From Candidatus Scalindua sp. (GTDB lineage: Bacteria; Planctomycetota; Brocadiia; Brocadiales; Scalinduaceae): 32,000 bases of DNA. A model generated the notes under the pieces. The model did not search any database, had not been told where the DNA came from, and saw only the letters and a list, made by a program, of their open reading frames with translations. Positions 13,534 through 31,615 of the stretch are shown one piece after another. Where the stretch lies: the NCBI GenBank assembly GCA_031316235.1, contig JALDRA010000001.1, positions 600,001 through 632,000 of the forward strand, given 5' to 3'. Within the stretch, counting starts at the first letter, position 1. Every line of letters begins with the position of its first letter. Both the position numbers and the translations under genes were made by a program.

Positions 13534-13578
13534 GAGCCAGAACTAAAAAAGGAATACATGTATAACATGTTCTGGCTC
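13534..13578 (-). other. 10-bp perfect inverted repeat enclosing a 10-bp palindrome, in the ALDH leader
   Basis: gagccagaac (13534-13543) and gttctggctc (13569-13578) are perfect complements. The 25-nt loop contains atacatgtat. Lies 23 nt upstream of the ALDH ATG. Confidence 0.5.
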
Positions 13579-13590
13579 GGTCAGGTTGTA

Positions 13591-13698
13591 TACTAAAACC
13601 GATTTAGTTTCCGGTTTTACCGGAAACCAAATCTTGGTGAAGGTATACTCGCTCAATTTTATCTCGGATTTTATCCGAAATCCAGTATGAGATGAGTA
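13591..13698 (+). mobile_element. Family A structured repeat (MITE-like), copy A1, 108 bp
   Basis: tactaaaaccgatttagtttccggttttaccggaaaccaaatcttggtgaaggtatactcgctcaattttatctcggattttatccgaaatccagtatgagatgagta, bracketed by TA (13589-90) and TA (13699-700). Hairpins are gtttccgg-tttta-ccggaaac and tcggat-ttt-atccga. Confidence 0.8.
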
Positions 13699-13802
13699 TA
13701 TAATGAAAACCTGCAGTTTTCAAACTTCCCTTTATTATATAAAAATAACAGCTGTCCATTTTTCTTTACCACACAAAGGTGTGAGAAAACGGCCTGTAAT
13801 AA

Positions 13803-13926
13803 TGTCTGAGCGATAACTACGCAGGTACAAGGCGCGCAAAAATTTTGTAACCGGAACGTACTTGAGTACGTGAGGATTGCGAGATTTTTACCGCAGCGAA
13901 GCAGATGGATAGTTTTCGTTCAAACA
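13803..13926. repeat. Family B structured repeat, copy 2
   Basis: Collinear with 7804-7927. Identical blocks are caggtacaaggcgcg, aaccgga, agtacgtgaggat and agttttcgttcaaaca. The left terminus is decayed (tgtctgagcgataa). Ends 8 nt from the TAG stop (13935-13937) of the SDR gene. Confidence 0.85.
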
Positions 13927-13934
13927 TCAAATTT

Positions 13935-14771
13935 CTACCAGCAACTGTAACCACCATCTATTATTAAATTGGCTCCCGTCATATAGGATGAGGCATCTGA
14001 AGCCAGAAAAAGCACCGCGCCACTGTATTCGCCTTCTCCCGCCATACGCCCGAGCGGTACTTTAGAACAATAGTTCTTCAAAAACGTCTCATCCTGATTA
14101 TTAAAAACCCCTCCCAATGTGAGAGTATTCACCCGGACCCCTGCCCCGGCCCAGTAGGTAGCAAGATACCGTGTAAGATTCAAGACACCTGACTTGGTAA
14201 CTGAGTACGAAACTGGTTTAAAGAAAGGCTCTTCCTTATACTCATATAACCTCTGATCCGGAGAAAGATTACCGTAGATGGAAGAAATATTGATTATACT
14301 GCCCTTACCGCTTCTGGCAATAGCTCCGCCTATCACCTGGCAGGACAAAAACATTCCCGTTAAGTTTACGTCTATTATTGCCTGCCATGACGACTCAGGG
14401 TATGTCTCAAAGGGTCCTGTTTCCTGCTCCGATGCATTTGGAGGAGCATCAACAGCAGCATTATTAACCAAAATAGCAGGAGGACCGAACCGGGATAACA
14501 CTTCTCCCAAACCGTCTTGAAGAGATTTTCTACTGGTTATGTCTGCCTCAACTAATAATAGATTCTCAGAATCAATTTTCCCCAGTTTCGATTTGGGATT
14601 GTCGAGCCTTATATCAAAAGCTGCGACACGTGCATTGGCGGCAAGCAGCGTTTGAACATATTCACCTCCAAGTTGTCCTGCTGCACCAGTCACGACCGCA
14701 ACCCTTCCGGATAAACTGAAAAGTCCTTCGCTCTTGGAAATCAATCCTGATCTATTACGGGTTACCTTCAT
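13935..14771 (-). CDS. Short-chain dehydrogenase/reductase (SDR)
   Basis: 278 aa. VVTGAAGQLGGEY (TGxxxGxG), NNAAV, and the catalytic YSVTK (YxxxK). Confidence 0.85.
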   Translation of the reverse strand: MKVTRNRSGLISKSEGLFSLSGRVAVVTGAAGQLGGEYVQTLLAANARVAAFDIRLDNPKSKLGKIDSENLLLVEADITSRKSLQDGLGEVLSRFGPPAILVNNAAVDAPPNASEQETGPFETYPESSWQAIIDVNLTGMFLSCQVIGGAIARSGKGSIINISSIYGNLSPDQRLYEYKEEPFFKPVSYSVTKSGVLNLTRYLATYWAGAGVRVNTLTLGGVFNNQDETFLKNYCSKVPLGRMAGEGEYSGAVLFLASDASSYMTGANLIIDGGYSCW

Positions 14772-14842
14772 GAATCAAACAAGATTTTCAAATTAGAAAA
14801 AAACGTTCTCTCTGCCTGAAATATATCTTTCTGTGGTTCTCA

Positions 14843-15898
14843 TCACTCCAGGAAATCGAGCGAGATCGGCTCCTCTTCATTTAAATCGACTTTCAGCTTC
14901 CTGCCTATGATTTTATCAGCCAGATATGGTGGAACTCCGTTAGCGGGTGTCTTAAAGATAATATCATTCCGGGTAAGGATAGTACCTGCGGAGAGCGGTT
15001 CAGAAGTGTAGATGCCTTTCCCCATCTTATTTCTTGCCTCTTTTTCAAAGTCATAGACAACACGCTCTTCATCACCAAGAGAGATATCCACACGATTCAA
15101 ATCCCTCACCTGTTTTCGCAACCCTTCCGGCTCCAGGGAGAACTTATGGTCAGTTCCTTTCCATGAACGATTCAACGTGAAATGCTTTTCTACAACCCTG
15201 GCACCAAGCATATAGGCAATTACGGGAGCTAAAATACCATTGTCATGGCTGGAATACCCTATAATGGCATCGGGAAATTCCCTTTTTAATACCTTTACAA
15301 TCCTCAAATTCAAGTTCCGGTATTCAACAGGGTATTCTGCAATGCAATGCAGAATACAGATTTTATCATTATGGGGTCGAATCGTTTCATAGGCTATCCG
15401 TATCTCATCGAATGTCGCAGCTCCGGTTGAAACAAACATTGGTTTTCCTAATGTGGCAACATACTTCAACAGGGGAGTATTGGTTAGATCTCCGGAAGCA
15501 ATCTTATAGCTGGTTATGCCTAATTTCTCAAGGAAGTCAACACTCTTAAAATCAAAGGCTGCAGCCATGAATTCAACTCCATTCTCCTCAGCACAATTCA
15601 TAATTTCAACATACTCGTCCCAACCAAATTCGAGATATTCCCGATGTTCCCCATACGTAGCCCCGTAGCTGTTCTCGTTATCATACGGTTTATTGTAGAA
15701 TTCCTTCGTGTAGAGACTCTTATTATCCCGCTTTTGAAATTTCACAGCATTGACACCGCAATTTGCGGCAACCTTAATCATTTCAAGAGCAGTTTCCAGT
15801 TTGCCTTGATGATTGTGCCCAATCTCGGCGATAATAAAACACGGCCCATTATCAGAAATTACGCTTTTACCAAAATGAACGGTTTTCATAAATAACAT
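14843..15898 (-). CDS. NeuB-family nonulosonic/sialic acid synthase (PEP-condensing) with C-terminal SAF domain
   Basis: 351 aa. CFIIAEIGHNHQGKLETALEMIKVAANCGVNAVKFQKR is the NeuB/PseI/LegI signature. C-terminal ...LSAGTILTRNDIIFKTPANG is SAF-like. Substrate class cannot be told by eye. Confidence 0.85.
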   Translation of the reverse strand: MLFMKTVHFGKSVISDNGPCFIIAEIGHNHQGKLETALEMIKVAANCGVNAVKFQKRDNKSLYTKEFYNKPYDNENSYGATYGEHREYLEFGWDEYVEIMNCAEENGVEFMAAAFDFKSVDFLEKLGITSYKIASGDLTNTPLLKYVATLGKPMFVSTGAATFDEIRIAYETIRPHNDKICILHCIAEYPVEYRNLNLRIVKVLKREFPDAIIGYSSHDNGILAPVIAYMLGARVVEKHFTLNRSWKGTDHKFSLEPEGLRKQVRDLNRVDISLGDEERVVYDFEKEARNKMGKGIYTSEPLSAGTILTRNDIIFKTPANGVPPYLADKIIGRKLKVDLNEEEPISLDFLE

Positions 15899-16249: not shown

Positions 16250-17869
16250 TCAATAAATGACCTTATATAAGAATAAAACACTTTGATTCGAAGTATCGCT
16301 ATCGTGTGCGGTATAGACCAGCTCTGTCTGCCCTTTCATATCAGATTGCTTCAATTCTGCTGCCAGGACTTCCTGCTCTTTCCTCGTCAACACTATGTAA
16401 TCGGCATTTTCTTTTCTCGCCAGAGAAAGTGCAGTGTAAATGTCTGCCATCTGTACCGCTCTCCCTCCGGCATAATAGGCGTTTCTTGCAGATGTGCTAC
16501 AGACTACTGGTACGGCCTTCTCTGAATTTTCTCTTATCCATTTACCAACTTGCAAAATACCTACCTTATCAAACCTCTGGGGTTTCAGTGTCTTTGGCAG
16601 TAAAACCCCCAGGGCAAGAACTACTATAACGAGCAGTACCCTTCTTTCACTTTTCCCCATCCTCTTCAGCAGCCACACACCCAATTTGCCCGTCTGAATC
16701 CTTTCATATAACCATGTACCCACTGCAGTAACTCCTATGCCAACCCAGAAGAGAACGGGGATAATTATAGGCATTACGTGTCTCCTGCTGGGATAGTTGA
16801 CACCTTCACCGGAACATACCGCGTGTGTCAAGTTTAACCTTAATAGAATGAAGAGATAGAACAAAACGATTGACAATACATAGTACCCAAAAAACCCCTT
16901 CTTCCCGATCTTGCACCAACTGGCCATACCGACAAGAAAGAGTGCAAACAAAAATGGATGGAACGTACTGATATATTTTTCCATGGTATATAAAGCACCA
17001 CCAATATAAGCCTTCACACTTGCCCCTTTATCTGACGGTTGGTTAACATGAACTGGCCCGGAATCTGTCTGCGGCCCCCCTGTTTCTTCAGCAGCTCTTT
17101 CGCCATCCTGGCGATCAATCAACTTCTCGATACCCGCTATCTTCGATACACTCTTTTTCTTGGTAAGATGCCAGGAACCTGTTTCACTCTTTATATATAC
17201 CAGATAAGGAATCGAGAACACTGCAAATGAAGCAACAAGAATCAGGATTTCAACCAGTTTCTGTTTCCAGACAACCTTTATCCTGAAGCCCCCCTTGAGA
17301 AGACACCAACCACTCACAATGCACATAATCCCAATCCCTTCCGGTCGGGCAAGATAGGCAAATGCACTGCAGATGCCCGTAAGAGCATACAGCAAAATCC
17401 TCCCATCTTTTATTGCAAAAAAACCGGATCCAAGCGCTGCAAGAAAGAAAAAGAAATAGGTTGACTCAGAGATGATATCAGCTGAAAACCTTACCGCGTA
17501 TGGATGAAAGGCCAGAATAAGGGAAGAAACAAACGATATCTTCTGGTTAAATACACCCCTGCCGATCAGATAAAAGATTAAGACCGTTACTGTACTCAAA
17601 AAAACAGATATGATAGTACCCGAAAGCTCCATGTAAGGAATGATCTTGTACACACCAGCCATCATCATTGAGTACAAGGGGTGATAGTCGTGTCTTAAAC
17701 CGGCTTGAAAATCTCCACGAGCAAAAAAGTGTGCATTCTCGATAAACGCAACACTGTCATTCTGTATTACATAGGTAACAGAGCTCAGATATATTCTCAC
17801 CATCAGAGAACAACACAGGATTATCCAGGCGTATCTATCATGTAAAAATCCAATTTTGTTTTTTTCCAT
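16250..17869 (-). CDS. GT-C fold membrane glycosyltransferase (GT39/GT83, PMT/ArnT-like)
   Basis: 539 aa with about 11 hydrophobic helices. An acidic motif (QNDSVAFIENAHFF) follows helix 1. There is a Pro/Gly/acidic internal loop and a ~110-aa soluble C-terminal domain, the typical PMT_2/ArnT-like architecture. Confidence 0.55.
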   Translation of the reverse strand: MEKNKIGFLHDRYAWIILCCSLMVRIYLSSVTYVIQNDSVAFIENAHFFARGDFQAGLRHDYHPLYSMMMAGVYKIIPYMELSGTIISVFLSTVTVLIFYLIGRGVFNQKISFVSSLILAFHPYAVRFSADIISESTYFFFFLAALGSGFFAIKDGRILLYALTGICSAFAYLARPEGIGIMCIVSGWCLLKGGFRIKVVWKQKLVEILILVASFAVFSIPYLVYIKSETGSWHLTKKKSVSKIAGIEKLIDRQDGERAAEETGGPQTDSGPVHVNQPSDKGASVKAYIGGALYTMEKYISTFHPFLFALFLVGMASWCKIGKKGFFGYYVLSIVLFYLFILLRLNLTHAVCSGEGVNYPSRRHVMPIIIPVLFWVGIGVTAVGTWLYERIQTGKLGVWLLKRMGKSERRVLLVIVVLALGVLLPKTLKPQRFDKVGILQVGKWIRENSEKAVPVVCSTSARNAYYAGGRAVQMADIYTALSLARKENADYIVLTRKEQEVLAAELKQSDMKGQTELVYTAHDSDTSNQSVLFLYKVIY

Positions 17870-18349: not shown

Positions 18350-18751
18350 ATGTCAATACTGATCGAAGAACTGAAGCATGAACACTCAGACATTCTGGCG
18401 ACACTGAACGAAGTAAAAAAGCTGGGTATTCTTTCAAAAGAGGGACAAACCAAACTCCTTGCCGCAAAAGCTGTATTACTCGAACATCTGCAAAATGAAG
18501 ATGACAGGCTGTATCCGATTCTCAAAGCGAATGCAGAACAGAATAAGGCACTTGAAAACACCTTAGACCTTTTCGCCATGGACATGAAGAATGTATCAAA
18601 TATTGTAAAAAAATTCTTCAAAAAATTTTCCATTGGTGTTGTTTACGATGAGATCCAGAAAGATTTTGAATTACTGTTCTCGGCTCTCGTTGAAAGGATA
18701 AAGAACGAAGAAGATCTCCTCTATGATGAACTTGAAAGGCTGCAGCAATAA
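18350..18751 (+). CDS. Hemerythrin-like (HHE cation-binding) domain protein
   Basis: 133 aa and helical. Recurring H/E ligand-type spacing: LKHEHSDIL, LLEHLQNEDDRLYP, RIKNEEDLLY. Good SD. Confidence 0.55.
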   Translation: MSILIEELKHEHSDILATLNEVKKLGILSKEGQTKLLAAKAVLLEHLQNEDDRLYPILKANAEQNKALENTLDLFAMDMKNVSNIVKKFFKKFSIGVVYDEIQKDFELLFSALVERIKNEEDLLYDELERLQQ

Positions 18752-18843: not shown

Positions 18844-20193
18844 TTATATATCCAGAATCCTCTTTGCAATCTCAAAATAGATGAAGATGCCGGTTACGTC
18901 AAGGATCGTAGTAATAAGGGGTGCAGAAACCATCGCAGGGTCGATTCTCAAATAACGGAAGATGAGTGGGGCTGTAGCGCCACCTATGTTTCCTACAAGG
19001 ATCACGGCCGCTACCGATATTCCTACCGTAATCCCCAACTTTATGTCTCTGAAAAATACTACGGCAACCATAAATGCCGTTGCTCCCAGGGCAAGACCCA
19101 AAAGAAAGCCGGCACAGGTTTCCCGCCATAGTACCTTCAACCACTGGCTGAGCATTAATTCCCCGGTTGCCATAGCCCGGATCACCAGGGTAGATGATTG
19201 CGAACCAATATTACCTCCCGCATCCGTCAGCATAGGGATAAAATAGGCCAGGGCAATTATGGAGCTGAGTGTCACTGTGTATTTCTGGAGTATCTTTCCA
19301 GAGATAGTAGACGCCAGTATCAAGAAAAACAGCCACACAACTCTTCCGGAAACATGCTTCAAGACCCCTGAACGGAAGTATTTCTCTTCCGGCAACTGCA
19401 TAGCAGCCATTTTATGAAAATCTTCCGTAGCCTCATCCTCAACTATGTCAAGAATATCATCAACCGTAATTATGCCAACCAGACGGTTTTCACTGTCAAC
19501 CACAGGCAAAGAAATGTAATCATATTTTTGAATTACCTTGGCTACCGCTTCCTGATCATCTGTTGTCTTTACCTTATGAACGTTTTCCTGCATTATCTGA
19601 CTTATTTTCTGATCAGGTTTTGCCAGGATAATGTCCCTAAGCGACACCACTCCGCACAGTACTCTTTTTTCATTAATTGCATAGCACGTATAGATGGTCT
19701 CTCTGTCAGGCCCTGTCTCACGTATACGTTCAAGTGCTTCGGAGACGAGCATTTCCGTCTTAAGATCCACATACTCCGTGGTCATTACCTTTCCTGCCGA
19801 TTCCGGTGGGTAATTTAAGAGTACGTTTGCCTCTTCTCTCTCTTCCCGAGGCAATAGTTTAAGGAGCTTGTTTACTACAGATGCCGGCAGTTCGTCCAGG
19901 AGGTGCGTCCTGTCATCGGGACTCATCTCCAGCAGGATCTCTTTTACCTTTTGTTCGGTAAACTGCCTGAGAAGCTCTTCTTCCTCTTCAGGATCGAGAA
20001 GGGAAAAGACTTCGGCAAACTTTTCCTTGTCAAGCATCCGAAATGCAATTGTTCTCTCGGTGGGTTCTAACTCCCTGATTACATCGACAACATCAGCAGG
20101 ATGTAGCCCTCTCAGGATAAGGCGAAGGCCTTTGAGATTCTTCGCATCTATCAGTTCCTTTAATTCAGGTGTAAATATCTTGTACCACTTCAT
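18844..20193 (-). CDS. mgtE: Magnesium transporter MgtE
   Basis: 449 aa. MgtE_N region (LHPADVVDVIRELEP), a tandem CBS pair (VMTTEYVDL..., ...LPVVDSENRLVGIITVDDILDIVEDEATED) and a 5-helix C-terminal MgtE membrane domain (IPMLTDAGGNIGSQSS). Confidence 0.9.
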   Translation of the reverse strand: MKWYKIFTPELKELIDAKNLKGLRLILRGLHPADVVDVIRELEPTERTIAFRMLDKEKFAEVFSLLDPEEEEELLRQFTEQKVKEILLEMSPDDRTHLLDELPASVVNKLLKLLPREEREEANVLLNYPPESAGKVMTTEYVDLKTEMLVSEALERIRETGPDRETIYTCYAINEKRVLCGVVSLRDIILAKPDQKISQIMQENVHKVKTTDDQEAVAKVIQKYDYISLPVVDSENRLVGIITVDDILDIVEDEATEDFHKMAAMQLPEEKYFRSGVLKHVSGRVVWLFFLILASTISGKILQKYTVTLSSIIALAYFIPMLTDAGGNIGSQSSTLVIRAMATGELMLSQWLKVLWRETCAGFLLGLALGATAFMVAVVFFRDIKLGITVGISVAAVILVGNIGGATAPLIFRYLRIDPAMVSAPLITTILDVTGIFIYFEIAKRILDI

Positions 20194-20324: not shown

Positions 20325-21518
20325 TTATCTTGCTAAATTTTTCAAGCTCGAACCGGAGCGGTAAAACGGGTGGTAATGTAAGCCACAGCATCTTGAACAA
20401 ATTGGCAAAGAGTTTTCATTGATAAATTTCCTGAATTTTCTGGATTTACTGTTATTCCAGATTTCCGAGAATCGTTCATTCTTTATATTTCCTAATACAT
20501 AATCAGGGTTGTCATTACAAAAGACCGCATCTCCATTAGGATATATCATGAGGTGTGCCCAGGGGGCAATACAGCGTTTAATCTTTTCCCCTGGTTTGGA
20601 TCCATTATGAAAAATATCATGCTGCGGAGAATAATAGCTTGTAATATCGGAAATTTTTAACGCAGGAAAAAACGCAAGTTTAAATTTGAGCTCCTTTTTA
20701 AGCATGGAAGAAATACTCTGCTGCAACGCGACAGGGTCTATTGAAGTCTCATCCCGCACCCACCCTTTCCATGACGTCGCATCGCACTGAAAGATTTCCT
20801 TCATGGTATTCTCATAATTTATCCCGGTCCTCGTATTATTAAAATAGGGATGTTTGACAAGCAGCATTTCAAAACCCAGTTGTTCCGTAATAACGGGCAT
20901 CTCCTGCAAATGCTGATGTGAAGATTCGTTAATAGTAAATACCTGACATAACAAAGGTTTTTGTTTACCTCTCCTTTTCTTCTCATCAATGATCTTCCGT
21001 ACTCCGGATGCAACCTTCTGAAAACCATCAAGAGTTCCCCTGCTCTTATTATGAATCTCTTCAGGCCCATCGATTGAGATGTACAGGACATCAACTCCAA
21101 GTTCGACTACCTCATCTGCATGATTATCGAGAAACGTCCCGTTTGTAACAATCCAGCATATCAGGTTTTTCTGTTTGATATACCGTATTAATTCCATGAT
21201 GTCCTTATAAAAGAAAGGTTCTCCACCTGTCAGAAAAATGGTTGGGGAAAATTTTGAGACATCATCAATGAAACCTTTCAAGACATCGATGTTCATCGTT
21301 TCTCTCAGAGCGCTGCTATCTTTTTGATAATAGTTTCCGAGCTCTCCCCACTGCCCGCAATTCTTGCACCGGAAATTACACAGATACGTGGGCATCATAT
21401 GTATGAGGTACGGTGAAAAGCTATATCCACTCTTTAAACGACCATCAATCTGAAAAGAGAGTATTCTTGTAACCCACTTTAACATTCTTATATCAGAAAA
21501 TGGGTTTTCCCGCGTCAT
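20325..21518 (-). CDS. Radical SAM protein with partial SPASM/twitch C-terminal domain
   Basis: 397 aa. CNFRCKNC is the CX3CX2C motif, followed by LTGGEPF. C-terminal CIAPW...NGDAVFC (Gx4C) ...LGNI...F.EIWN...LPICSRCC is an auxiliary-cluster region with fewer Cys than a full SPASM domain. Confidence 0.8.
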   Translation of the reverse strand: MTRENPFSDIRMLKWVTRILSFQIDGRLKSGYSFSPYLIHMMPTYLCNFRCKNCGQWGELGNYYQKDSSALRETMNIDVLKGFIDDVSKFSPTIFLTGGEPFFYKDIMELIRYIKQKNLICWIVTNGTFLDNHADEVVELGVDVLYISIDGPEEIHNKSRGTLDGFQKVASGVRKIIDEKKRRGKQKPLLCQVFTINESSHQHLQEMPVITEQLGFEMLLVKHPYFNNTRTGINYENTMKEIFQCDATSWKGWVRDETSIDPVALQQSISSMLKKELKFKLAFFPALKISDITSYYSPQHDIFHNGSKPGEKIKRCIAPWAHLMIYPNGDAVFCNDNPDYVLGNIKNERFSEIWNNSKSRKFRKFINENSLPICSRCCGLHYHPFYRSGSSLKNLAR

Positions 21519-21550
21519 CTTTATTATGTTTTTAAGGGTATCAATCGTCT

Positions 21551-22756
21551 TTATTCTTTCGTTCTTTCTACACCCAGAAACTCTGCCATCCTTAAAAATG
21601 TCCTGCCAAGCATTGAGCGTTTCATCACTATCGCCTTATAATTACAGACCTCATCGCAGCAAAAACAACCAATACACGCATCTTCATCCACTATCACCTT
21701 GCCATTCGGAGCTGACATTGCTTTTGCGGGACAATTTCTTATGCATTCATAACATCTCGTACAGTTTGGCTCATAAATGGTAGATATGGAGCTGCAGCTA
21801 TTGTCAAACATCTTTGCAAGAAGGAAATTGGGGATATATTTGGACGCAAAATCCTGAGCAGAGCTTGAAGGTTTCTTAAAATCTGGAACTGAAACCGCAG
21901 CTATTTTTTCTCCCACCACGTTAATGTTGTTCAAATCTGCAGTACCCAGTCCTCTTTCATAAGCATATTTAATTATGGGGACCGTCATTGGATTAAAACC
22001 TATTATCGAACTGGCAACAGCATCGAGAGCAACACAATCATAACTTGCAATGATTACACCCACCTTCCGGGGTTCTCCCGCATTCGGGCCGTTTCCTTCC
22101 ATCCCAATTATTCCATCCATTACGGTAATATGCGGTTGGACCATCTCAAAGACATCAACCAGAGCCTTTGCCATTAATTTGGCTTTTGGAGCAAGCAGAT
22201 GTACATTTTTTTTCCCATTTGCAGGAATTGCTCCAAACATATTCTTTATGGCACCTGTATACCTCGTTAAACCATGAGTCTTTAATTTGGGAACAGAGAC
22301 AATAACATCGACAGTTTTCACAGTCTTTGCGATCTTAAAGGATTTTACAATTGCGCTTTTCTCATTGATAATGTCTAAGGTCTCATCCTTATCAAAATTT
22401 ACTATTTTGGCACCAGTCTCTTCTGATATCTTATCTATCTGAGTCACCCTGAAGGCCTGATACGTAGAACCGGTTCTCAGACTTCCACAAGAATCGCCAA
22501 TATAAACCTCACAGCCATAATCTTTCTGAAAAATATCAACGAGTGCCCTGATGACTGAAGGATGCGTGTTAACAGCTCTTTCAGGTCCCAATGCCGCAGA
22601 AAGGAGATTTACCTTCAACAAGACCTTCATACCAGGTTTTACAAGAGTCTCCACATTGCCGAGTAGATCGAGACATCTTTTTGCAGCTATACCGACCTCT
22701 GCAAGGTCATACTCCTCACAGCGTGAAATTGAAACAGTTGACATATTATCACCCAC
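21551..22756 (-). CDS. DUF362 domain protein with C-terminal 2x[4Fe-4S] ferredoxin-type domain
   Basis: 401 aa. The N-terminal ~300 aa resemble DUF362 (VLLKVNL..., HP.V..A, VSVPKLKTHGLTRYTGAIKNMFG). C-terminal CTRCYECIRNCP...CIGCFCCDEVC gives two CxxCxxCxxxC(P) motifs. The GTG start at 22756 lies 10 nt after aggagg; an alternative ATG is at 22744. Confidence 0.75.
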   Translation of the reverse strand: MGDNMSTVSISRCEEYDLAEVGIAAKRCLDLLGNVETLVKPGMKVLLKVNLLSAALGPERAVNTHPSVIRALVDIFQKDYGCEVYIGDSCGSLRTGSTYQAFRVTQIDKISEETGAKIVNFDKDETLDIINEKSAIVKSFKIAKTVKTVDVIVSVPKLKTHGLTRYTGAIKNMFGAIPANGKKNVHLLAPKAKLMAKALVDVFEMVQPHITVMDGIIGMEGNGPNAGEPRKVGVIIASYDCVALDAVASSIIGFNPMTVPIIKYAYERGLGTADLNNINVVGEKIAAVSVPDFKKPSSSAQDFASKYIPNFLLAKMFDNSCSSISTIYEPNCTRCYECIRNCPAKAMSAPNGKVIVDEDACIGCFCCDEVCNYKAIVMKRSMLGRTFLRMAEFLGVERTKE

Positions 22757-22784
22757 TGAGTCTGTGCCTCCTGCACAGCTCTTT

Positions 22785-22821
22785 AAAATAGCAGCGACAA
22801 CACACTTGTTGCTGCTATTTT
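22785..22821 (-). terminator. Intrinsic-terminator-like hairpin between the B12-rSAM and DUF362 genes
   Basis: aaaatagcagcgacaa (22785-22800), loop cacac, ttgttgctgctatttt (22806-22821): 16-nt arms with one non-Watson-Crick position. On the minus strand this is an A-tract, a GC-containing stem, then TTTT. Confidence 0.4.
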
Positions 22822-22906
22822 GAATATGTGCTTCAGCACAAAAAAATGTACCCCATTGATTTATTTACATTTGCAAACGGAAAGTCTATACAATAAAATA
22901 ATCGTA

Positions 22907-24370
22907 TTAGAAAAATTTATTCATCTCTTCCGCCCTGTTCATATCTTCTCTGTATAGTTCTCTCTGTGTTAACTTTTTCTGAAAGATACAATTTTTAAGT
23001 TTTCTGTAAGGCCTCATACAATAGGTTCTAAAGTAGTATGCGGCAGGATAATTCTTGATAAATGCCCTGGTGGTACATATATAATCAGCATATTTTTTAT
23101 TATATTTCCACCTGAGGAACTGCAACTCATCGGGAGTCAGATAGTTTGTCTTAATATTTGCCCAAAAACAGTTATACCTGCTGTAATCATATTTATTGGT
23201 TACGAGTCCTTTTTCAATCATCTCTTCCCGTAATGGCGTCTTGGGATAAGGCGTCAGTATTTGATCTGCAAAAAAATCGATATCTAATCCTACAAAGAAC
23301 TCGTAGTTCTCGGCAATATTCTCTTCCTTATCGTTTGGATGTCCTATGATCATGCCACCGACAATCATTATTCCCTGATCGTGTAATCTGTTGACGGCAA
23401 TCTTTGTCTTTTCAATAATGTTCCCCTTTTGCAGGTTCTTCAAATTTTCCTTTGAAACGTTTTCAATACCAAGAAAGACTATCCTGAATCCGGCCCTTGC
23501 CATCTTTTCTGCCAGCGTTTCTGAAGAAGCTATACCTGCACTGCTCGCCTGGATGATATACCGTATGTCGTTGTGGCCGGAAGCAACAATGGCATCACAG
23601 ATATCTTCAAATCTTTTTACATTAAGAGAAAAATTATCGTCTGCGATGATGATAAAGTTCGCACCGTATTTTTTAGCATCACCAATATCTTTCATAACCC
23701 TGTCAATACTATATTCCCGAAAACTTTTGCCATACATTTTGTCTATACTGCAGAAGTTGCATGGCATGGTACACCCCCGGGATGTCTCTACGATATCTAA
23801 CGTAAAACCATAGTATCGATAACCTTTATAGACTCTCTTAGCCCTTGCCGGCAATTTAATATCATCTAAATTCTCAAGTGGCCTGGGGCTATTATGAACA
23901 AATTTTCCATTTATTTTATAAGAAATACCTGAAACACCCCTTATATCACGTTTTTGTTCATGCGCCTCCAGAAGCTCGCTGAAGCTCAGGTCCCCTTCAC
24001 CCCTTACAAGGAAGTCAAATTGTTCAGCACAATCACTACCAGCAATTTCGTCATACATTAACGTTGCATGATAACCCCCCAGCGCAGTCTTTATCTCTCT
24101 GTTTTCATCCTTTATGATCTGCGCAATTTTCCGGGACGTTTCAAATTGGAAGCTCATTGCACTAAGACCAACGACTGACGGTGTATATTTTCGTAAGAGT
24201 TCCAAGACACTCTGCTCAATTTTATGTCTTCTCAATACCAGGTCTGCGACAAAAACGTTATGGTTTTTGATGTTGCCGGCAATTGATGATATGGCAAGAT
24301 TTGGAGATTTCCACCTCTTTCCATTGAAGTGAGGAGCGGTATCTGGCATGGATAAAAGAAGAACATTCAC
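22907..24370 (-). CDS. B12-binding-domain radical SAM protein (class B)
   Basis: 487 aa. N-terminal MNVLLLSMPD...VGLSAMS (cobalamin-binding Rossmann-like domain), then ETSRGCTMPCNFCS (CX3CX2C). The GTG start forms a GTGA overlap with the nitroreductase stop (24370-24367). Confidence 0.85.
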   Translation of the reverse strand: MNVLLLSMPDTAPHFNGKRWKSPNLAISSIAGNIKNHNVFVADLVLRRHKIEQSVLELLRKYTPSVVGLSAMSFQFETSRKIAQIIKDENREIKTALGGYHATLMYDEIAGSDCAEQFDFLVRGEGDLSFSELLEAHEQKRDIRGVSGISYKINGKFVHNSPRPLENLDDIKLPARAKRVYKGYRYYGFTLDIVETSRGCTMPCNFCSIDKMYGKSFREYSIDRVMKDIGDAKKYGANFIIIADDNFSLNVKRFEDICDAIVASGHNDIRYIIQASSAGIASSETLAEKMARAGFRIVFLGIENVSKENLKNLQKGNIIEKTKIAVNRLHDQGIMIVGGMIIGHPNDKEENIAENYEFFVGLDIDFFADQILTPYPKTPLREEMIEKGLVTNKYDYSRYNCFWANIKTNYLTPDELQFLRWKYNKKYADYICTTRAFIKNYPAAYYFRTYCMRPYRKLKNCIFQKKLTQRELYREDMNRAEEMNKFF

Positions 24371-24873
24371 TTAATTTCCCTAACCATTCCAGCTAATGGT
24401 TTTCTATACGTTGGTTCCGGAATGTTCACCGGATAACCCAAAGGCGTTAAGATTAAGGGTTCAACGTTATCAGGGAGTTCGAGAACTTCTTTTACAACCT
24501 TTGATTTAAAAGCTGCTATCCAGCACGTGCCAAGCCCCTCGTTAAATGCTGCAAGAATTAAATGATCCATTGCTATCGCAACATCAACATCAACATATGG
24601 TTTACCATCCCCCCTTTTCCAGGCTTCATCAGGCATCGCACATGCACATATTATAATGGGAGCAGTATAAAACCATTTCTGTGAATATGCGTCCTTTAAT
24701 CTCCGTTTTGTCTCATCTTCCTTTACTACAACAAAAGATACAGGCTGCCTGTTTGCAGCTGATGGTGAAAGTATTGCAGCATTCAGTATCCGATTCAGTT
24801 TGTCTTCTTCGATCAGATCCGGTTTATACGATCTTATACTCCTTCTCTTTCGAATAACATCATAAAATTCCAC
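24367..24873 (-). CDS. Nitroreductase-family flavoprotein (small, ~168 aa)
   Basis: MEFYDVIRKRRSIRSYK...ILNAAILSPSAANRQP is the nitroreductase-family N-terminal signature. The GTG start is preceded by ggaggggga. Confidence 0.8.
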   Translation of the reverse strand: MEFYDVIRKRRSIRSYKPDLIEEDKLNRILNAAILSPSAANRQPVSFVVVKEDETKRRLKDAYSQKWFYTAPIIICACAMPDEAWKRGDGKPYVDVDVAIAMDHLILAAFNEGLGTCWIAAFKSKVVKEVLELPDNVEPLILTPLGYPVNIPEPTYRKPLAGMVREIK

Positions 24874-25155: not shown

Positions 25156-25184
25156 TTGACAAGAAAATTGTGTGTTGATAAAAT
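25156..25184 (+). promoter_or_regulatory. Sigma70-like promoter candidate for the ispH-fusion operon
   Basis: TTGACA (25156-25161), N17, TAAAAT (25179-25184), about 65 nt upstream of the ATG at 25249. Confidence 0.4.
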
Positions 25185-25248: not shown

Positions 25249-26994
25249 ATGAGCGTTATCGTAGCAAAAACAGCTGGCTTCTGTATGGGTGTACGAAAAG
25301 CACTGGATAAGGTTCTGGACGCCTCTGATAAAAAGAAAAATGATGGTGGAACTGTTTTTACGGAGGGGCCACTCATACACAACCCTCAGGTACTTGAGAT
25401 GCTGGAAAACAAAGGAATAAAGACCCTGAAAGGAGAAACTGATCTTTCTAAAAGCACCGTAGTCATAAGGGCACATGGAATAACACCTCAGAAGAGACAG
25501 GAATTAGCACAATCAGGTGCGAACATCTGTGATGCTACATGTCCCAGAGTCATGCGGGTACAAACAATTATCAGGTTGCATGCAAAGGACGGTTATTCCA
25601 CCATTATCGTTGGAGATGAGGGACATGCCGAAGTAGTGGGGTTGCTTGGATATGCAAATGGGAATGGATATGTAATCTCCTCGGCTGAAGAAGTCGCAGG
25701 TTTACCCGATATGGAAAAAGTCTGCATCGTAGCCCAGACAACACAAGACATGCAAACCTATGCATCAACTGTAGCAAGGCTGAAAGGAAGATATAAGAAT
25801 CACAAAGTATTTGAAACAATCTGCAGTTCAACATCAAAAAGGCAAGAAGAGATAATTACGCTGAGCAATTCCGTTGATGCCATGATTGTTGTAGGGGGTC
25901 GGGGAAGTGCCAACACAAACCGGTTGGTACAGATATCTGCGAAAGAAGGAACTCCCACTTTCTTGATTGAAACGGAACAAGAGCTTGATAGAGACAAACT
26001 TTCAGAGTATGATGTGATTGGTGTGACTGCAGGAGCTTCAACACCTAACTGGTTGATACAGCAGGTGGTAGAAAAAATTCAAACATCCCAGGCCGAAAAG
26101 ACCGGTACCATACGCAAACTTACGCAAAAAGCAGGGACAATCTTCATTGGAAGTTTCATGTATCTCGGCCTGGGCGCTGCAAGTCTCAGTTATACCGGAT
26201 CTGTTCTTCTCGGTATCAATTCTAAATTTAGTTTTTGTACCATTGCAAGCCTGTTCCTCTTTTCCATGTATGTTCTCAACCATTTTGCATACAAAGAGGC
26301 TGTAGCATTAAACGTACCCTCTCGATCAAAATTATATAACCGGTATCAAATCCTTTTCGTGGTTCTCGGTGTTATGGCTGCACTTATCTCTTTTGTATTG
26401 GGATTCATGCTGAGTATTCAGGTATTTTTCTGTGTTTTTTTTGCAGCCTTATTTGGAATAGCTTACAAGATATCAGTAATTCCGAAGAATTTTCCTAAAA
26501 TTGTCAGGTATCGCAGCCTGGAACAGATCCCGGGTTCCAAAGAGATATTTATCAGCATGGCCTGGGCAGTGAGTACCGGATTGATCCCATTTTTAGGCTC
26601 ACCTGTCAGCTATTCCCCAGCCCTTCCAGTTGTATTAGTTTTTGCGTTTAGTATAGCCTTCATACGGACAACACTTCTTGGTGTAGAAGATGTGCAGGGT
26701 GACAAGATTGTCGGAAAGGAAACAATACCCATCGCAATGGGAAAAAAAAGTACCAAGCAACTCTTGATAGCAATTTCGATAGTGCTGGCAATACTCTTGA
26801 TAGTAAGCCCGATTATTGGTTTATCTTCGACACTTTCATTTTATCTTCTCCCCTGTGTTCTATACGCCTGTGGATATCTATACCTCTATCACAAACGCCT
26901 CATACCAAGTGGATTAGCCTGTGAGTTTATTACCGATTTCAACTTCATCCTGGCAGGAATAATGGTTGTAATATGGCGCTTGTGTGAATTATAA
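25249..26994 (+). CDS. ispH: Fusion protein: IspH/LytB (HMBPP reductase) domain plus C-terminal UbiA-superfamily 9-helix membrane domain
   Basis: Residues 1-~285 carry all three IspH cluster cysteines in context (TAGFCMGVRKA, CDATCPRV, ETICSSTSKRQ) plus HAEV, VVGGRGSANTNRL and GVTAGASTP. Residues ~300-581 are hydrophobic, with a UbiA second motif LLGVEDVQGDKIVGKETIPIAMG. The first motif position reads LNHFAYKEAVALNVPSR (no Asp). Confidence 0.8.
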   Translation: MSVIVAKTAGFCMGVRKALDKVLDASDKKKNDGGTVFTEGPLIHNPQVLEMLENKGIKTLKGETDLSKSTVVIRAHGITPQKRQELAQSGANICDATCPRVMRVQTIIRLHAKDGYSTIIVGDEGHAEVVGLLGYANGNGYVISSAEEVAGLPDMEKVCIVAQTTQDMQTYASTVARLKGRYKNHKVFETICSSTSKRQEEIITLSNSVDAMIVVGGRGSANTNRLVQISAKEGTPTFLIETEQELDRDKLSEYDVIGVTAGASTPNWLIQQVVEKIQTSQAEKTGTIRKLTQKAGTIFIGSFMYLGLGAASLSYTGSVLLGINSKFSFCTIASLFLFSMYVLNHFAYKEAVALNVPSRSKLYNRYQILFVVLGVMAALISFVLGFMLSIQVFFCVFFAALFGIAYKISVIPKNFPKIVRYRSLEQIPGSKEIFISMAWAVSTGLIPFLGSPVSYSPALPVVLVFAFSIAFIRTTLLGVEDVQGDKIVGKETIPIAMGKKSTKQLLIAISIVLAILLIVSPIIGLSSTLSFYLLPCVLYACGYLYLYHKRLIPSGLACEFITDFNFILAGIMVVIWRLCEL

Positions 26995-27026: not shown

Positions 27027-27716
27027 ATGAAACATAAAAATATACTTACCGAAAGCAACTTTAAAAGAAATATCAGGAGACGGCTGATTGCCGGCCTTCT
27101 CGTCATCCTTCCAATATATGTCACTTTTTTTGTCATTAAATTTTTGCTGGGATTAATAGGAGGAATCCTCTCACCTTTAGTTCGGAAGGTGTTCCTGGTT
27201 TTTGGTTTTGCTTTGCGAAATAGCTCAGCCGATGAATTTGTTGTCACATCAGTTGCATTTGTACTTGTCTTTGTATTGATCTATTTTATTGGTGTCTTTG
27301 CAACCAATTTCTTTGGCAAGCTTCTAATAGGATATTTTGAAATGCTATTGGACAATATGCCTATTATTAAAAACATCTATAAATCCTGCAAGCAGATGAT
27401 TGGTCTTATCGGCCTGCCAAGCAGAAAGGCTTTTAAACGTGTAGTGATTGTTGATTACCCCCGTGTGGGAATGAAGGTTGTTGCATTTGTCACAGGCAGT
27501 TTGAAAAACAATGAAGGAACAGAACTTACCAGCATCTTCATCCCCACGACACCAAACCCTACATCAGGGTTTCTCATATATCTGCAGGAAGAGGAGATCG
27601 TAGAAACAAATATGACAATTGAGGAGGGTATGAAATTGATTGTCTCGGGTGGAATACTTGTCCCTGATGAGATCGAATTCCATACCAAACAAACTGAGGG
27701 CAAGGCAGATGCATAA
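27027..27716 (+). CDS. DUF502 family membrane protein
   Basis: 229 aa. Two N-terminal helices, then ...VVIVDYPRVGMKVVAFVTG... and IFIPTTPNPTSGFLIYL, the DUF502 hallmark PTTPNPTSG. Starts 33 nt after the ispH-fusion stop. Confidence 0.7.
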   Translation: MKHKNILTESNFKRNIRRRLIAGLLVILPIYVTFFVIKFLLGLIGGILSPLVRKVFLVFGFALRNSSADEFVVTSVAFVLVFVLIYFIGVFATNFFGKLLIGYFEMLLDNMPIIKNIYKSCKQMIGLIGLPSRKAFKRVVIVDYPRVGMKVVAFVTGSLKNNEGTELTSIFIPTTPNPTSGFLIYLQEEEIVETNMTIEEGMKLIVSGGILVPDEIEFHTKQTEGKADA

Positions 27717-28146: not shown

Positions 28147-28950
28147 TCACATTCCGACCTTGATCCTCTGAGCCAGAAATAGTGGTAAACCTGCTTTCTT
28201 TATCTTTTCCATTGTTTTCTCATAATCATATTCCAGCCGGACTATCTCAACGCCCCAATCAACGTCATCAAATACAGCAAACGAGAGTAGATGCAAACCA
28301 TCACGAGGTTGTCCGACACTTCCTACGTTAACGATAGTCTTCCCATCTCTCGACATGTCCGCACCTCTCTTTCTCCGGTTAAGTGCATAATCTGCATAAA
28401 CTCCCGGGATATGCGAATGGCCAACAAAACAGAGTGAATGTTCCATTGTTCTCATACTTAAGAACGCGTCTCTCTTATCAGCAATATACTTCCATTCCAT
28501 GGGATTGTCCGGTGACGCATGCACATACAGAACACTCCCTTCATCTAACTGATAGCAAAATTCCTTTATGGAATCTTTTGATACATCATCTAATACCTCT
28601 CTGGTCCACGCAATTGCATCAAGTGCATATTGATTAATCTGGCAATCGAGGTCCATACTCAACATAGCATAATCATGATTTCCCAGGCATATCTTGTCTG
28701 TTCGTGAACGAACCATCTCAAGGCACTCAACCGGATTCGGACCATACCCTACAATATCACCAAGGCATACAATTTCCTTGTCTCCTGCAGACGTATCGAT
28801 ATATTCCCATACCTTTTGCAGGGCCTCCATGTTGCCATGAATGTCAGAGATTATGATTTTCTTCATTACCATTCTTTCAGTTAAAAAATGAGGACTGATC
28901 TTTCCCAATCCTGGAATGTATAAGGAATCCGCAAAGAAATCAATAACCAT
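28147..28950 (-). CDS. Metallophosphoesterase (YfcE/MJ0936-like calcineurin-fold phosphoesterase)
   Basis: IIISDIHGN, CLGDIVGYGP, LGNHD and FVGHSH are the metallophosphoesterase motifs I-IV. The true start is probably ATG at 28872 or 28866 (MVMKKIIISDIHGN) rather than 28950. Confidence 0.8.
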   Translation of the reverse strand: MVIDFFADSLYIPGLGKISPHFLTERMVMKKIIISDIHGNMEALQKVWEYIDTSAGDKEIVCLGDIVGYGPNPVECLEMVRSRTDKICLGNHDYAMLSMDLDCQINQYALDAIAWTREVLDDVSKDSIKEFCYQLDEGSVLYVHASPDNPMEWKYIADKRDAFLSMRTMEHSLCFVGHSHIPGVYADYALNRRKRGADMSRDGKTIVNVGSVGQPRDGLHLLSFAVFDDVDWGVEIVRLEYDYEKTMEKIKKAGLPLFLAQRIKVGM

Positions 28951-29494: not shown

Positions 29495-31615
29495 TTGATA
29501 AAAATGGAAAAGGTGGAATGTAAATTAATTGACAGAAATTCTGTGTCCGGTCAGCTGGAGCGGGTATTTCGGCCTATTGAAGGCGAAATTGCCATACGCA
29601 GCCAAGACAGGGTACAGGTGATTTCCTTCGATCAAATTTCCTGCGTTTTGTTTACCAAAACATCAAATCAACAGAATAATTTTCACGTGCGCGGCATAAA
29701 ACCAGAAGAGATTACAACAAGGTCCGGTGAAGTTTATCGGGTACGGGTAGTACAGCAGGACATTATGGAAGATCTTCATCAAGGTTTTTACGGTATACCG
29801 ACCAACCAGGAAAATGGACCAAGCTACATTTTTTTTCTTAAAACTGGTATTATGCACCGAGGCAGGGAGCGCCTTGACAAGAACCAGATGTACACAACTA
29901 AGGAGAATGGTCAAAACACCTCAGGAGAGTATCAGCAACAGAAAATCGGAGAAATTTTGACTGATTACAATCTCGCCACCAAGAAGCAAATTGATGCAGC
30001 ACTCAAAGCACAACGTCTTGGTTCAAACAAGTACCTGGGAGAGATCCTCATTGCAAATAAAATTATCACGGAAAAAGAGCTCTTAATGGCATTGGCATTT
30101 AAATTCCAATTACGCTCTGTGGATCTTCGTGACATATCTCCTAATCTGGAAACACTTGATTTAGTACCGTATGAAACGGCAAGAAAGTTCCATATCTTTC
30201 CATTTGCATCTGATACAAAAAAAATTACTATTGCAACCTCTCAGCCTACTGACATTAATGTCATAGACACCTTGCGTTTCAGTACCAACCGATGGGTGGA
30301 AATGGTGTTAGCAACACATAAACAGATAGAAACACATATAATTAAATATTATGAAGATGAGTCAGAAAAAAACGAAATAAATATAGACGAAGTGATATCT
30401 GGCATAGAGCTGGAAGAACAAGCCCAAGAGATAACAATAAAAGACGAAGCGGAAGCTGCACCAGTCATACGCTTGGCAAACAAGATACTTCTCAATGCTC
30501 TCAAGGAGGGCGCGAGTGACATCCATATGTTACCGCAAGAAAAAGGATTGAAGGTTTCATATCGAGTGAATGGCCTGCTTCAAGAATACCTTAAGTTGGA
30601 CAAACGTATCAGCAAGAGTTTGGTTGCGAGGTTTAAAATTGTTGCTCTCATGGATATCACAGAACGCCGCCTGCCGCAAGATGGCCGTTTTAAAATCGTT
30701 TTGAACAACCGCCCTGTAGAATTCCGCGTTTCCTGCATGCCAGGTCAATATGGAGAAAACCTCGTATTGCGTATTTTAAATAGAAGTAATCATACTACCG
30801 GGTTAAATCAATTGGGACTGGATAGCAAGGATGTAGAAACAATACGTCATATAGCCCGCAGTACCCATGGCATGATGCTTGTCACCGGGCCAACCGGTAG
30901 CGGCAAATCATCAACTCTGGCCGCCGTATTGCAGGATCTGGTCGATGAACCCAAACACATGTTATCATTGGAAGACCCTATTGAGATTGAAGTCCCGGGA
31001 ATTAATCAAATACAAATTCACGAAAAAATAGGTTTCACTTTTGCAACAGCCCTTCGCAATGTTCTACGACACGACCCTGATATTATTATGGTTGGAGAAA
31101 TACGTGATCCAGAAACTGCCAGGATATCTGTCCAAGCAGCGCTGACCGGTCATGTACTCATTTCAACCCTTCATACAAATAGTGCTGCCGCGGCATTTTC
31201 CCGTTTGTCAGACATGGGTGTGGAACCGTACCTGGTATCGGCAACTGTTAAAGGTATCATGGCCCAGCAACTGTTACCTCGGCTATGTGCAGAGTGCAGA
31301 TTAACCAAAAAACCTGATGAAAAGATACTGGCATTCATTGCCAAACATGGGATCAATACCAAAAATCTGATCGATCATGCTTCCAGAGGCTGTGATCATT
31401 GTCGTGATTCCGGTATATCAGGCAGGATATTGGTGTATGAATTTTTAGCGGTGAATCATGAATTACAGGCCATGGTATCAAAAGAGGCCACATTAGATGC
31501 GATACATGCAACCGCTTGTAAACTGGGCATGCGCACTATTGTGCAGATGGCAGTAGATGCTTCTCAGAAGGGACTTGTTTCACTCAACCGTATATTGCCT
31601 CTGTTCATCGAGTAG
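29495..31615 (+). CDS. GspE/PilB-family secretion or type IV pilus assembly ATPase with ~150-aa unrecognised N-terminal extension
   Basis: 706 aa. Tandem T2SSE_N/MshEN-like helices (KIGEILTDYNLATKKQIDAALKAQ; YLGEILIANKIITEKELLMALAFKF). Walker A GPTGSGKSST, Walker B DPDIIMVGEIRD, His box GHVLISTLHTN. Tetracysteine CAEC...CDHC. TTG start in the track; ATG (MEKVECK) is 3 codons later. Confidence 0.85.
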   Translation: MIKMEKVECKLIDRNSVSGQLERVFRPIEGEIAIRSQDRVQVISFDQISCVLFTKTSNQQNNFHVRGIKPEEITTRSGEVYRVRVVQQDIMEDLHQGFYGIPTNQENGPSYIFFLKTGIMHRGRERLDKNQMYTTKENGQNTSGEYQQQKIGEILTDYNLATKKQIDAALKAQRLGSNKYLGEILIANKIITEKELLMALAFKFQLRSVDLRDISPNLETLDLVPYETARKFHIFPFASDTKKITIATSQPTDINVIDTLRFSTNRWVEMVLATHKQIETHIIKYYEDESEKNEINIDEVISGIELEEQAQEITIKDEAEAAPVIRLANKILLNALKEGASDIHMLPQEKGLKVSYRVNGLLQEYLKLDKRISKSLVARFKIVALMDITERRLPQDGRFKIVLNNRPVEFRVSCMPGQYGENLVLRILNRSNHTTGLNQLGLDSKDVETIRHIARSTHGMMLVTGPTGSGKSSTLAAVLQDLVDEPKHMLSLEDPIEIEVPGINQIQIHEKIGFTFATALRNVLRHDPDIIMVGEIRDPETARISVQAALTGHVLISTLHTNSAAAAFSRLSDMGVEPYLVSATVKGIMAQQLLPRLCAECRLTKKPDEKILAFIAKHGINTKNLIDHASRGCDHCRDSGISGRILVYEFLAVNHELQAMVSKEATLDAIHATACKLGMRTIVQMAVDASQKGLVSLNRILPLFIE

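Follow-up and report, generated by a model that had tools for sequence, protein, structure and literature searches.

An IspH-UbiA-like fusion protein of Candidatus Scalindua with a degenerate first and an intact second aspartate-rich motif

IspH-UbiA Fusions and Related Proteins

IspH, the reductase of (E)-4-hydroxy-3-methyl-2-butenyl diphosphate (HMBPP), catalyses the last step of the MEP isoprenoid pathway and is an essential enzyme and a drug target. This report deals with an IspH protein that carries a UbiA-like membrane domain at its C-terminus and is encoded in a stretch of 32,000 nucleotides (called the window) from Candidatus Scalindua sp., a planctomycete of the anaerobic ammonium-oxidizing (anammox) group (GCA_031316235.1, contig JALDRA010000001.1, positions 600,001 to 632,000 of the forward strand). 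The protein is the Scalindua ortholog of a known family of IspH-UbiA fusions, a "Rosetta stone" that has awaited explanation since 2015. Taken alone, the gene is an ordinary ortholog; its value lies in making an open question testable, not in representing a new kind of system.

The family was reported by Rao, O'Dowd, Li, Wang and Oldfield (2015, Chem Sci 6:6813; PMC4746011), who found 47 IspH-UbiA sequences in sulfate reducers. They classed the UbiA-like domain as PT_UbiA_5, of unknown function, called the proteins a "Rosetta stone" fusion and stated that they contain two DXXXD repeats. They proposed a role of the domain in bringing IspH to the membrane, with IspH supplying a UbiA-like prenyltransferase (PMC4746011). 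An earlier note on the window, written from the sequence alone, did not recognise an IspH-UbiA fusion as described, which the 2015 report contradicts. No subsequent publication on the fusion, nor any that deals with its anammox copies, was found in the literature.

The sulfate-reducer proteins of Desulfobacula toluolica, Desulfobacterium autotrophicum and Desulfobacca acetoxidans, like that of the window, consist of IspH and a nine-helix UbiA-like domain in about 580 residues. The C-terminal domains of fusion proteins from Desulfobacteraceae and Deltaproteobacteria are homologous to that of the window protein (31-36% identity over 88-98% of the domain, E values from 1e-34 to 1e-46), and loci of Desulfobacca acetoxidans (L072), Desulfonema and Desulfobacterales were recovered among the relatives of the window gene. 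Both groups share the motifs IPGSK, F-x-R and GD-x-x-x-G-x-ET, and both have strict anaerobes as hosts. The residues specific to the family (P357, S430, K431, W439, R473, D485, G489, E491, T492 and E559) are all found in the window protein. However, the window fusion belongs to an anammox planctomycete and not to a sulfate reducer, and anammox copies, unlike the sulfate-reducer members, are followed by a conserved DUF502 gene. Moreover, the "two DXXXD repeats" of Rao et al. reduce in the window protein to D481-x-x-x-D485, with none in HL2-3 (the loop between helices 2 and 3; other loops are named in the same way).

Canonical UbiA proteins, represented by Escherichia coli UbiA, MenA and CyoE and by the structures 4tq3, 4od4 and 7bpu/6m31, share with the window protein a nine-helix fold with cytoplasmic active-site loops, the Asn of motif 1, the Tyr of transmembrane helix 4 (TM4) and the DxxxD of motif 2 followed by G-x-x-[ST]. 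Both Asp-rich motifs bind Mg2+ and the prenyl diphosphate (PMC7839719), and the importance of the TM4 Tyr and the motif-1 Asn is documented (PMC4106721). The window protein differs from the canonical ones in being devoid of motif 1, in having an insertion in HL4-5 with the invariant IPGSK, in the length of HL2-3, which is about five residues shorter than that of E. coli UbiA, and in its fusion to IspH.

IspH-RPS1 fusions of Clostridia and Fusobacteria (NF000907) likewise place IspH at the N-terminus of a larger protein in anaerobes, but their partner is formed by four to six soluble S1 RNA-binding repeats, while that of the window protein is a membrane domain. The IspH part of the latter matches positions 1-282 of the NF000907 model, and the score of the whole protein is 308 against a cut-off of 624. 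Standalone IspH/LytB proteins (Aquifex aeolicus 3dnf, E. coli 3ke8) align with the window protein over their full length, with every cluster ligand and catalytic residue matched; the window protein has about 296 additional C-terminal residues, which form the membrane domain.

The Fusion Gene and Its Distribution

The fusion gene (25249-26994, + strand) is a single open reading frame (ORF) that begins with ATG, encodes 581 amino acids followed by a stop codon, and has matches in Pfam and NCBIfam. Residues 1-285 constitute the IspH domain (25249-26103, +). They are followed by a linker and a short pre-membrane helix (about residues 286-302; 26104-26154, +), the helix covering residues 287-301 in the full-length AlphaFold2 model, and by the nine-helix UbiA-fold membrane domain (about residues 303-581; 26155-26991, +). 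The linker has a dip in pLDDT to 74 at residues 281-290 in the same model and, with a majority frequency of 0.36, is the second-least conserved segment of the family alignment, only the periplasmic HL5-6 being lower (0.30).

A scan of one genome per species found a relative in at least 504 species. The best 80 loci were analysed, and the counts out of 76 given below refer to full-length fused members. IspH and the UbiA-like domain are in one ORF in 76 of the 80 loci, which come from independent assemblies; the exceptions are explained by the edge of a contig or by a local frameshift. When the C-terminal 300 residues served as the query, 47 proteins were retrieved, most of them with both PF02401 and PF01040. 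Among 1.84 billion representative proteins, matches at E<=1e-30 were obtained for 365 clusters (50% identity); nearly all of the best 150 of these are about 575-590 residues long, and their membrane domain spans about 290-577. The best 150 belong without exception to the fusion family and no standalone canonical UbiA relative is present among them. Three proteins that apparently consist of the C-terminal domain only (P0008, P0011 and P0026) were taken as gene fragments, as all lie on contigs of about 2-3 kb and the first two are devoid of a start Met.

The fusion noted earlier is therefore real, and it is old, with the same architecture in 76 of 80 loci that span Brocadiia, Nitrospirota, Thermodesulfobacteriota and Deferribacteres. 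An assembly or frameshift error joining two neighbouring genes would be an alternative, and frameshifted or split versions do occur among the relatives (L030, L078). Nevertheless, no support for it was found, and the single ORF of the independent assemblies and of most of the best 150 representatives argues against it. We consider such an artefact, or a canonical NDxxDxxxD motif overlooked elsewhere in the domain, to be highly improbable.

The closest locus (L001) belongs to a Candidatus Scalindua metagenome-assembled genome (MAG) and shows about 85% identity in both domains. Orthologs of Brocadia, Kuenenia, Jettenia and other Brocadiia have C-terminal domains that are 56-71% identical, and more distant members (31-40% identity) are found in Nitrospirota, Thermodesulfobacteriota (Desulfobacterales, Desulfobaccales, Syntrophaceae) and Deferribacteres. 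The fusion is present in all four anammox genera sampled, and the family is much wider than the sulfate reducers in which it was reported. Two MAGs harbour two distinct fusion copies each in different gene contexts: L011 and L026 in VGXV01 (Planctomycetota), and L049 and L074 in DASPRR01 (Thermodesulfobacteriota). These double copies are either real paralogs or the product of mixed bins.

The IspH Half

The Pfam LYTB profile PF02401 spans residues 3-278 and is covered completely (profile positions 1-267 of 267), with 304.7 bits against a cut-off of 24.5 and an E value of 6.8e-91. The NCBIfam equivalog TIGR00216 scores 280 bits (cut-off 187.85). The alignment with A. aeolicus IspH (3dnf) runs end to end (E 2e-63), as does that with E. 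coli IspH. The [4Fe-4S] cysteines C12, C98 and C192 correspond to E. coli C12, C96 and C197, and the catalytic or substrate-binding residues H44, H76, H126, E128, T164/T165, S220, N222 and S264 are all present (H41, H74, H124, E126, T167, S225, N227 and S269 in E. coli). The twelve positions for cluster ligands and catalysis are identical in 76/76 fused homologs.

These matches bear out the view of the earlier note that the IspH half is complete, and this half is predicted to be an active [4Fe-4S] HMBPP reductase. It is probably a working and likely a housekeeping enzyme, with which the invariance of the twelve positions fits. Neither a second ispH nor a canonical UbiA gene was found in the window or within 6 kb of any related locus. 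If the fused gene were the sole ispH of its genome, all isoprenoid synthesis (hopanoids, quinones, carrier lipids) would pass through a membrane-tethered enzyme.

Fold and Topology of the Membrane Domain

The Pfam UbiA profile PF01040 covers residues 335-551 (profile positions 31-232 of 250) with 38.3 bits against a gathering threshold of 34.2, which is a small margin. Together with the limits of PF02401, these borders agree with the two-domain layout first read from the sequence. An AlphaFold2 model of residues 290-581, built on a 19-sequence alignment, shows nine long helices (pLDDT 83, pTM 0.83). The top Foldseek matches of this domain in the PDB are all UbiA-family structures, namely AfUbiA (4tq3/4tq4), ApUbiA (4od4/4od5), digeranylgeranylglyceryl phosphate (DGGGP) synthase (7bpu/6m31) and the membrane PRTase 8j8k; TM-scores are 0.55-0.75, reaching 0.71-0.75 in the best matches (up to 0.75 for ApUbiA). 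PF01040, AlphaFold2 and Foldseek thus agree on the UbiA fold that had been proposed. NCBIfam gives weak matches to archaeal-type UbiA and DGGGP-synthase models, and with the Foldseek matches these point loosely to both as relatives of the membrane domain.

The domain is highly divergent, since the 19-sequence family profile matched no chain among the PDB sequences, even at E<=10. For this reason the motifs were placed by fold comparison and by hhalign.

Lys and Arg residues cluster in HL2-3 (4), HL4-5 (6), HL6-7 together with the beginning of TM7 (5) and HL8-9 (2), while the loops on the opposite side have 1, 0 and 0. According to the positive-inside rule, this distribution places the N-terminus, and hence IspH, in the cytoplasm. 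It implies that IspH shares its side of the membrane with the cap loops HL2-3, HL4-5 and HL6-7, which form the active site in UbiA enzymes. The full-length AlphaFold2 model (53 sequences) has a pLDDT of 90.8 and a pTM of 0.86, and the latter value suggests that IspH is packed on the membrane domain in a defined way.

Motif 1 Is Degenerate and Motif 2 Is Retained

The 76-sequence family profile was aligned by hhalign with E. coli UbiA, MenA and CyoE (probability 94.5%, E 7.5e-8, 211 columns). An earlier run with the 19-sequence alignment had reached only the motif-2 half (probability 75.6%), and the larger profile extended the alignment over motif 1. In HL2-3 the window protein reads N344-H-F-A-Y348-K-E-A-V352-A-L-N-V356-P-S-R359 (26278-26325, +) where the first Asp-rich motif of UbiA enzymes would be N-D-x-x-D-x-x-x-D. 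The aligned segments are LNHFAYKEAV and VNDYADRKFD (E. coli UbiA), which pair N344 with N67, H345 with D68, Y348 with D71 and V352 with D75. The three Asp of motif 1 are therefore replaced by H345, Y348 and V352, in the register that the earlier note had suggested. The motif-1 Asn (N344) and the TM4 tyrosine (Y406, equivalent to E. coli Y132) are both retained.

Motif 2, likewise noted earlier, is intact. In the cytoplasmic HL6-7 (G478-V-E-D481-V-Q-G-D485-K-I-V-G489-K-E491-T492; 26680-26724, +), D481 and D485 align by hhalign with E. coli D191 and D195, followed by G-K-E-T where the latter has G-I-K-S-T. The membrane domain holds only about ten acidic residues, and no DxxxD other than D481-D485 that could substitute for motif 1 is present in it. 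This fact, together with the unambiguous register (N-H-F-A-Y-K against N-D-Y-A-D-R), speaks against a canonical motif at another place in the domain. Neither of the two objections foreseen in the earlier note, an artefactual join or an intact motif elsewhere, is upheld.

The loss is not peculiar to the window protein. With N344 numbered as position 1 of the motif, H345, Y348, V352 and V356 occupy positions 2, 5, 9 and 13. Position 2 (D68 in E. coli UbiA) is never acidic in the 76 members, and E. coli CyoE likewise has Asn there. Position 5 (D71) is Asp or Glu in 40 members, Asn in 27 (the anammox clade), Gly in 7 and Tyr in 2, these being the window protein and L001. Position 9 (D75) is acidic in 19/76. 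Position 13, the acid of N-x-P, is acidic in 65/76, and Val occurs there solely in the window protein and L001. An acidic pair [DE]xxx[DE] at positions 5 and 9 is kept in 12/76, and only the window protein and L001 (2/76) have no acid at any of positions 5, 9 and 13.

The canonical NDxxDxxxD was found in none of the 76 full-length members, which corrects the published "two DXXXD" description. Desulfobacterales-type members (L051, L055, L057, L069 and others) contain a shifted D9-x-x-x-D13 in HL2-3, such as S-D-Q-Y-N-D-P, and this probably explains the statement of 2015. Motif 1 had been described in the earlier note as specifically ablated; its Asp residues are indeed missing, but the ablation is not specific, as the fusion of other genomes is equally without a canonical motif 1.

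Sequence comparison indicates that the motif-1 acids were lost stepwise across the family and that the window protein stands at the far end of this gradient. The gradient offers a natural series, from [DE]xxx[DE] to no acid at all, for testing the binding and transfer of prenyl diphosphates. In comparison with other anammox copies, the window lineage has lost E356, E364 and D478. The number of acids in HL2-3 is one in this lineage, with a mean of 3.0 in anammox members and 3.4 in the others, the anammox acids being at shifted positions. In motif 2, D485 and T492 are found in 76/76, G489 and E491 in 75/76, and D481 in 56/76, being replaced in the remaining 20. L001 (6001-6867 of Ca. Scalindua sp. 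RBC_AMX3) carries G489R, the sole exception among the 76, plus Leu in place of Gln483. These changes may reflect a relaxed constraint on motif 2 in this part of the Scalindua lineage, or else the MAG may contain a sequencing error.

What the loss of motif 1 entails can be judged from two other proteins. In AfUbiA, N68A and D72A (positions 1 and 5) abolish the Mg2+-dependent binding of geranyl diphosphate (GPP), mutants of motif 2 being only mildly affected, and the EcMenA equivalents of all four AfUbiA mutants lose function (PMC4106721). With Tyr at position 5, no substitute nearby at positions 9 or 13 and these precedents, canonical binding of the prenyl donor would not be expected in the window protein.

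Selection, Conservation and Possible Function

A comparison of the window gene with L001 (dS about 0.9-1.0) gave a dN/dS of 0.087 in the IspH part, 0.099 in the membrane domain and 0.022 in the altered HL2-3 loop. The membrane domain is thus under purifying selection and is not decaying, and it appears to retain a function of some kind. The cytoplasmic side is where conservation is concentrated. HL6-7 is the most conserved segment of the domain (majority frequency 0.80), while in the periplasmic HL1-2 and HL5-6 no column reaches 90% conservation and the lowest conservation of all segments is that of HL5-6. The conserved polar residues N344, P357, Y406, S430, K431, W439, R473, D485, G489, E491, T492 and E559 are at or near the cytoplasmic face, as are the residues fixed in the anammox clade (E350, E356, R407, K413, Q426 and E432). 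S430 is invariant and K431 nearly so; both belong to the family-specific I-P-G-S-K motif (residues 427-431; 26527-26541, +), located at the end of the cytoplasmic HL4-5 within an insertion relative to E. coli UbiA.

The earlier note had offered two options, a pseudo-enzyme that tethers IspH to the membrane or a UbiA-fold enzyme of altered chemistry. Both are still live, and the present data do not separate one from the other. In the simplest form of the former, the membrane domain would be a dead, ligand-free UbiA fold that acts purely as an anchor, keeping the oxygen-sensitive IspH at the membrane, for example near its electron donor or downstream enzymes, its conserved cytoplasmic residues being just a docking surface for IspH. 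The absence of all scored motif-1 carboxylates and the additional acid losses in the window lineage would fit, as would a rigid docking of IspH on the cap side, which the high full-length pTM suggests; membrane localisation was also considered by Rao et al. (PMC4746011). However, an anchor would not need nine helices with GD...G-x-ET, S-K, R and the TM4 Tyr kept across phyla at about 30% identity, nor would it need to be as constrained as IspH (0.099 against 0.087), and a pure anchor therefore appears unlikely.

The same conservation can be read in favour of an active prenyltransferase or a related diphosphate-utilising enzyme with altered chemistry. Such an enzyme would hold the diphosphate through one motif-2 metal together with the conserved basic residues K349, K431 and R473, or through the relocated carboxylates E350 and E432, and would transfer DMAPP (dimethylallyl diphosphate) or IPP (isopentenyl diphosphate) from the fused IspH, or a downstream prenyl diphosphate, to a membrane acceptor. 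N344, Y406, S430-K431, R473, D485, E491, T492 and E559 lie exactly at the UbiA active site, HL6-7 is the most conserved segment, and the motif-1 loop is near-identical among Brocadia, Kuenenia and Jettenia and has the very low dN/dS given above. The [DE]xxx[DE] pair of 12/76 members makes it plausible that the family was catalytic ancestrally, the anammox loops have a similar number of acids to those of other members (3.0 and 3.4) at shifted positions, and the mild effect of the motif-2 mutations on GPP binding by AfUbiA indicates that the two motifs contribute unequally (PMC4106721). On the other hand, the window lineage keeps a single acid in HL2-3 against the anammox mean of 3.0 and has lost D478 too, and G489R of L001, at an otherwise invariant Gly, resembles the pattern of relaxed catalytic positions. 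The first Asp of motif 2 is dispensable in 20/76 members, donor binding or activity is lost in both systems tested when the Asp of position 5 is changed (PMC4106721), and no acceptor-pathway genes are conserved nearby across phyla. An enzyme of altered chemistry is accordingly a possible reading, although in our opinion a doubtful one.

The reading that we favour, with a probability of about one half, is that an active IspH is held at the membrane by a non-canonical UbiA-fold module that binds a ligand or docks IspH and is not a standard prenyltransferase. Its basis is that the pocket-side residues are conserved and under selection and motif 1 is lost, a combination that favours a ligand-binding or docking module over a standard prenyltransferase. 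According to this scheme, the surface of the membrane would be the place where IspH makes IPP and DMAPP. The membrane domain would keep part of the diphosphate-binding apparatus (N344, Y406, K431, R473, D481/D485 and E491/T492), and in the window lineage it would most likely not ionise a prenyl donor in the standard Mg2+-assisted way that relies on both motifs. It would serve instead as a conserved docking and ligand-binding module that fixes IspH to the membrane and passes the IspH products on to isoprenoid enzymes of the membrane, possibly with the help of the DUF502 protein.

Several points weigh against a docking and ligand-binding module. A real enzyme whose metal ligation has changed would account just as well for the strong conservation of the loops equivalent to the active site. 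Asn, which could still ligate Mg2+, is present at position 5 in most anammox orthologs, and E350 and the anammox-specific E432 might act as substitute carboxylates. The fixed packing of IspH on the membrane domain is drawn from the pTM value alone, and expression of the full-length fusion failed in the work of Rao et al. (PMC4746011).

It is also conceivable, if rather improbable, that the UbiA-fold domain of anammox bacteria has become a catalyst or receptor of a non-canonical kind, which works with a single metal or does without the motif-1 metal site. It would take DMAPP, IPP or HMBPP directly from the fused IspH and commit it to a membrane lipid with the participation of the DUF502 protein. 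In that case, the stepwise loss of the motif-1 carboxylates would represent a change of mechanism and not a loss of function.

Gene Neighbourhood

The gene for a DUF502 membrane protein (27027-27716, +; PF04367, E 6.6e-30) starts 32 nucleotides after the stop codon of the fusion gene on the same strand, and no terminator-like site was found between them; the two genes are probably co-transcribed. DUF502 is directly downstream in every anammox-type locus that extends past the fusion (L001-L035; Scalindua, Brocadia, Kuenenia and Jettenia), and this pairing in anammox genomes is a new addition to what was known of the fusion. DUF502 was not seen beside the fusion in loci of Nitrospirota, Thermodesulfobacteriota and Deferribacteres. 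Beyond the anammox DUF502 no operon partner is conserved across phyla, the other neighbours being housekeeping or lineage-specific genes.

Upstream of the fusion gene, a consensus scan detected a promoter-like site of the sigma-70 type (25156-25184, +; TTGACA, a spacer of 17 nucleotides and TAAAAT, with TG before the -10 element; score 11/12) about 65 nucleotides from the start codon, which is a pattern match only. A purine-rich GGGGAAA stretch is located directly 5' of the ATG.

A divergent cluster occupies 20325-24873 (-) upstream of the fusion gene and encodes a nitroreductase (24367-24873), a B12-binding radical SAM protein (22907-24370), a protein with DUF362 and a 4Fe-4S ferredoxin domain (21551-22756), and a radical SAM/SPASM protein (20325-21518). 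Most Scalindua-type loci likewise have the nitroreductase and radical SAM/SPASM genes upstream of the fusion, and two have the B12-binding radical SAM gene there, while none of the three recurs upstream in the Brocadia or Kuenenia loci. B12-radical SAM enzymes have been proposed for ladderane synthesis. A link of the fusion to ladderane or ether lipids through this neighbour was considered and set aside, as nothing beyond proximity in the Scalindua loci supports it.

Other lineages have neighbourhoods of their own. Brocadia/Jettenia-type loci (L009, L013, L014, L016 and others) possess a conserved block upstream on the opposite strand with FolD, a GT2 glycosyltransferase, a HemN-like radical SAM protein, elongation factor P and a PF00348 polyprenyl synthetase; the latter is the only isoprenoid gene seen near the fusion. 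A membrane protein of PF04240, annotated as "carotenoid biosynthesis protein", is encoded divergently upstream in 9 loci, and a gene of the PNP_UDP_1 phosphorylase superfamily is found in 10. The loci with these two families beside the fusion are of the Desulfobaccales type (L040, L044, L050, L058, L061, L072, L075 and others). Since PF04240 proteins accompany a UbiA-type lycopene elongase in haloarchaea, this adjacency could be a lead to an acceptor pathway in the Desulfobaccales-type clade.

The remainder of the window contains a long same-strand cluster (1918-15898, -) for a nonulosonic-acid or polysaccharide pathway. It includes genes for NeuB (14843-15898, -), a short-chain dehydrogenase/reductase (13935-14771, -), an aldehyde dehydrogenase (12021-13511, -), a transketolase/DXS-like protein (10081-12024, -), a polysaccharide flippase (8601-10022, -) and a CMP-sugar cytidylyltransferase (7048-7794, -), two methyltransferases (-) and a 574-residue ORF with no Pfam match (5327-7051, -). 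Between this cluster and the divergent one lie genes for a PMT_2-type glycosyltransferase (16250-17869), a hemerythrin (18350-18751) and an MgtE Mg2+ transporter (18844-20193). Downstream of the DUF502 gene are those for a metallophosphoesterase (28147-28950) and for an ATPase of the type II secretion/type IV pilus (T2SS/T4P) kind with an MshEN domain (29495-31615).

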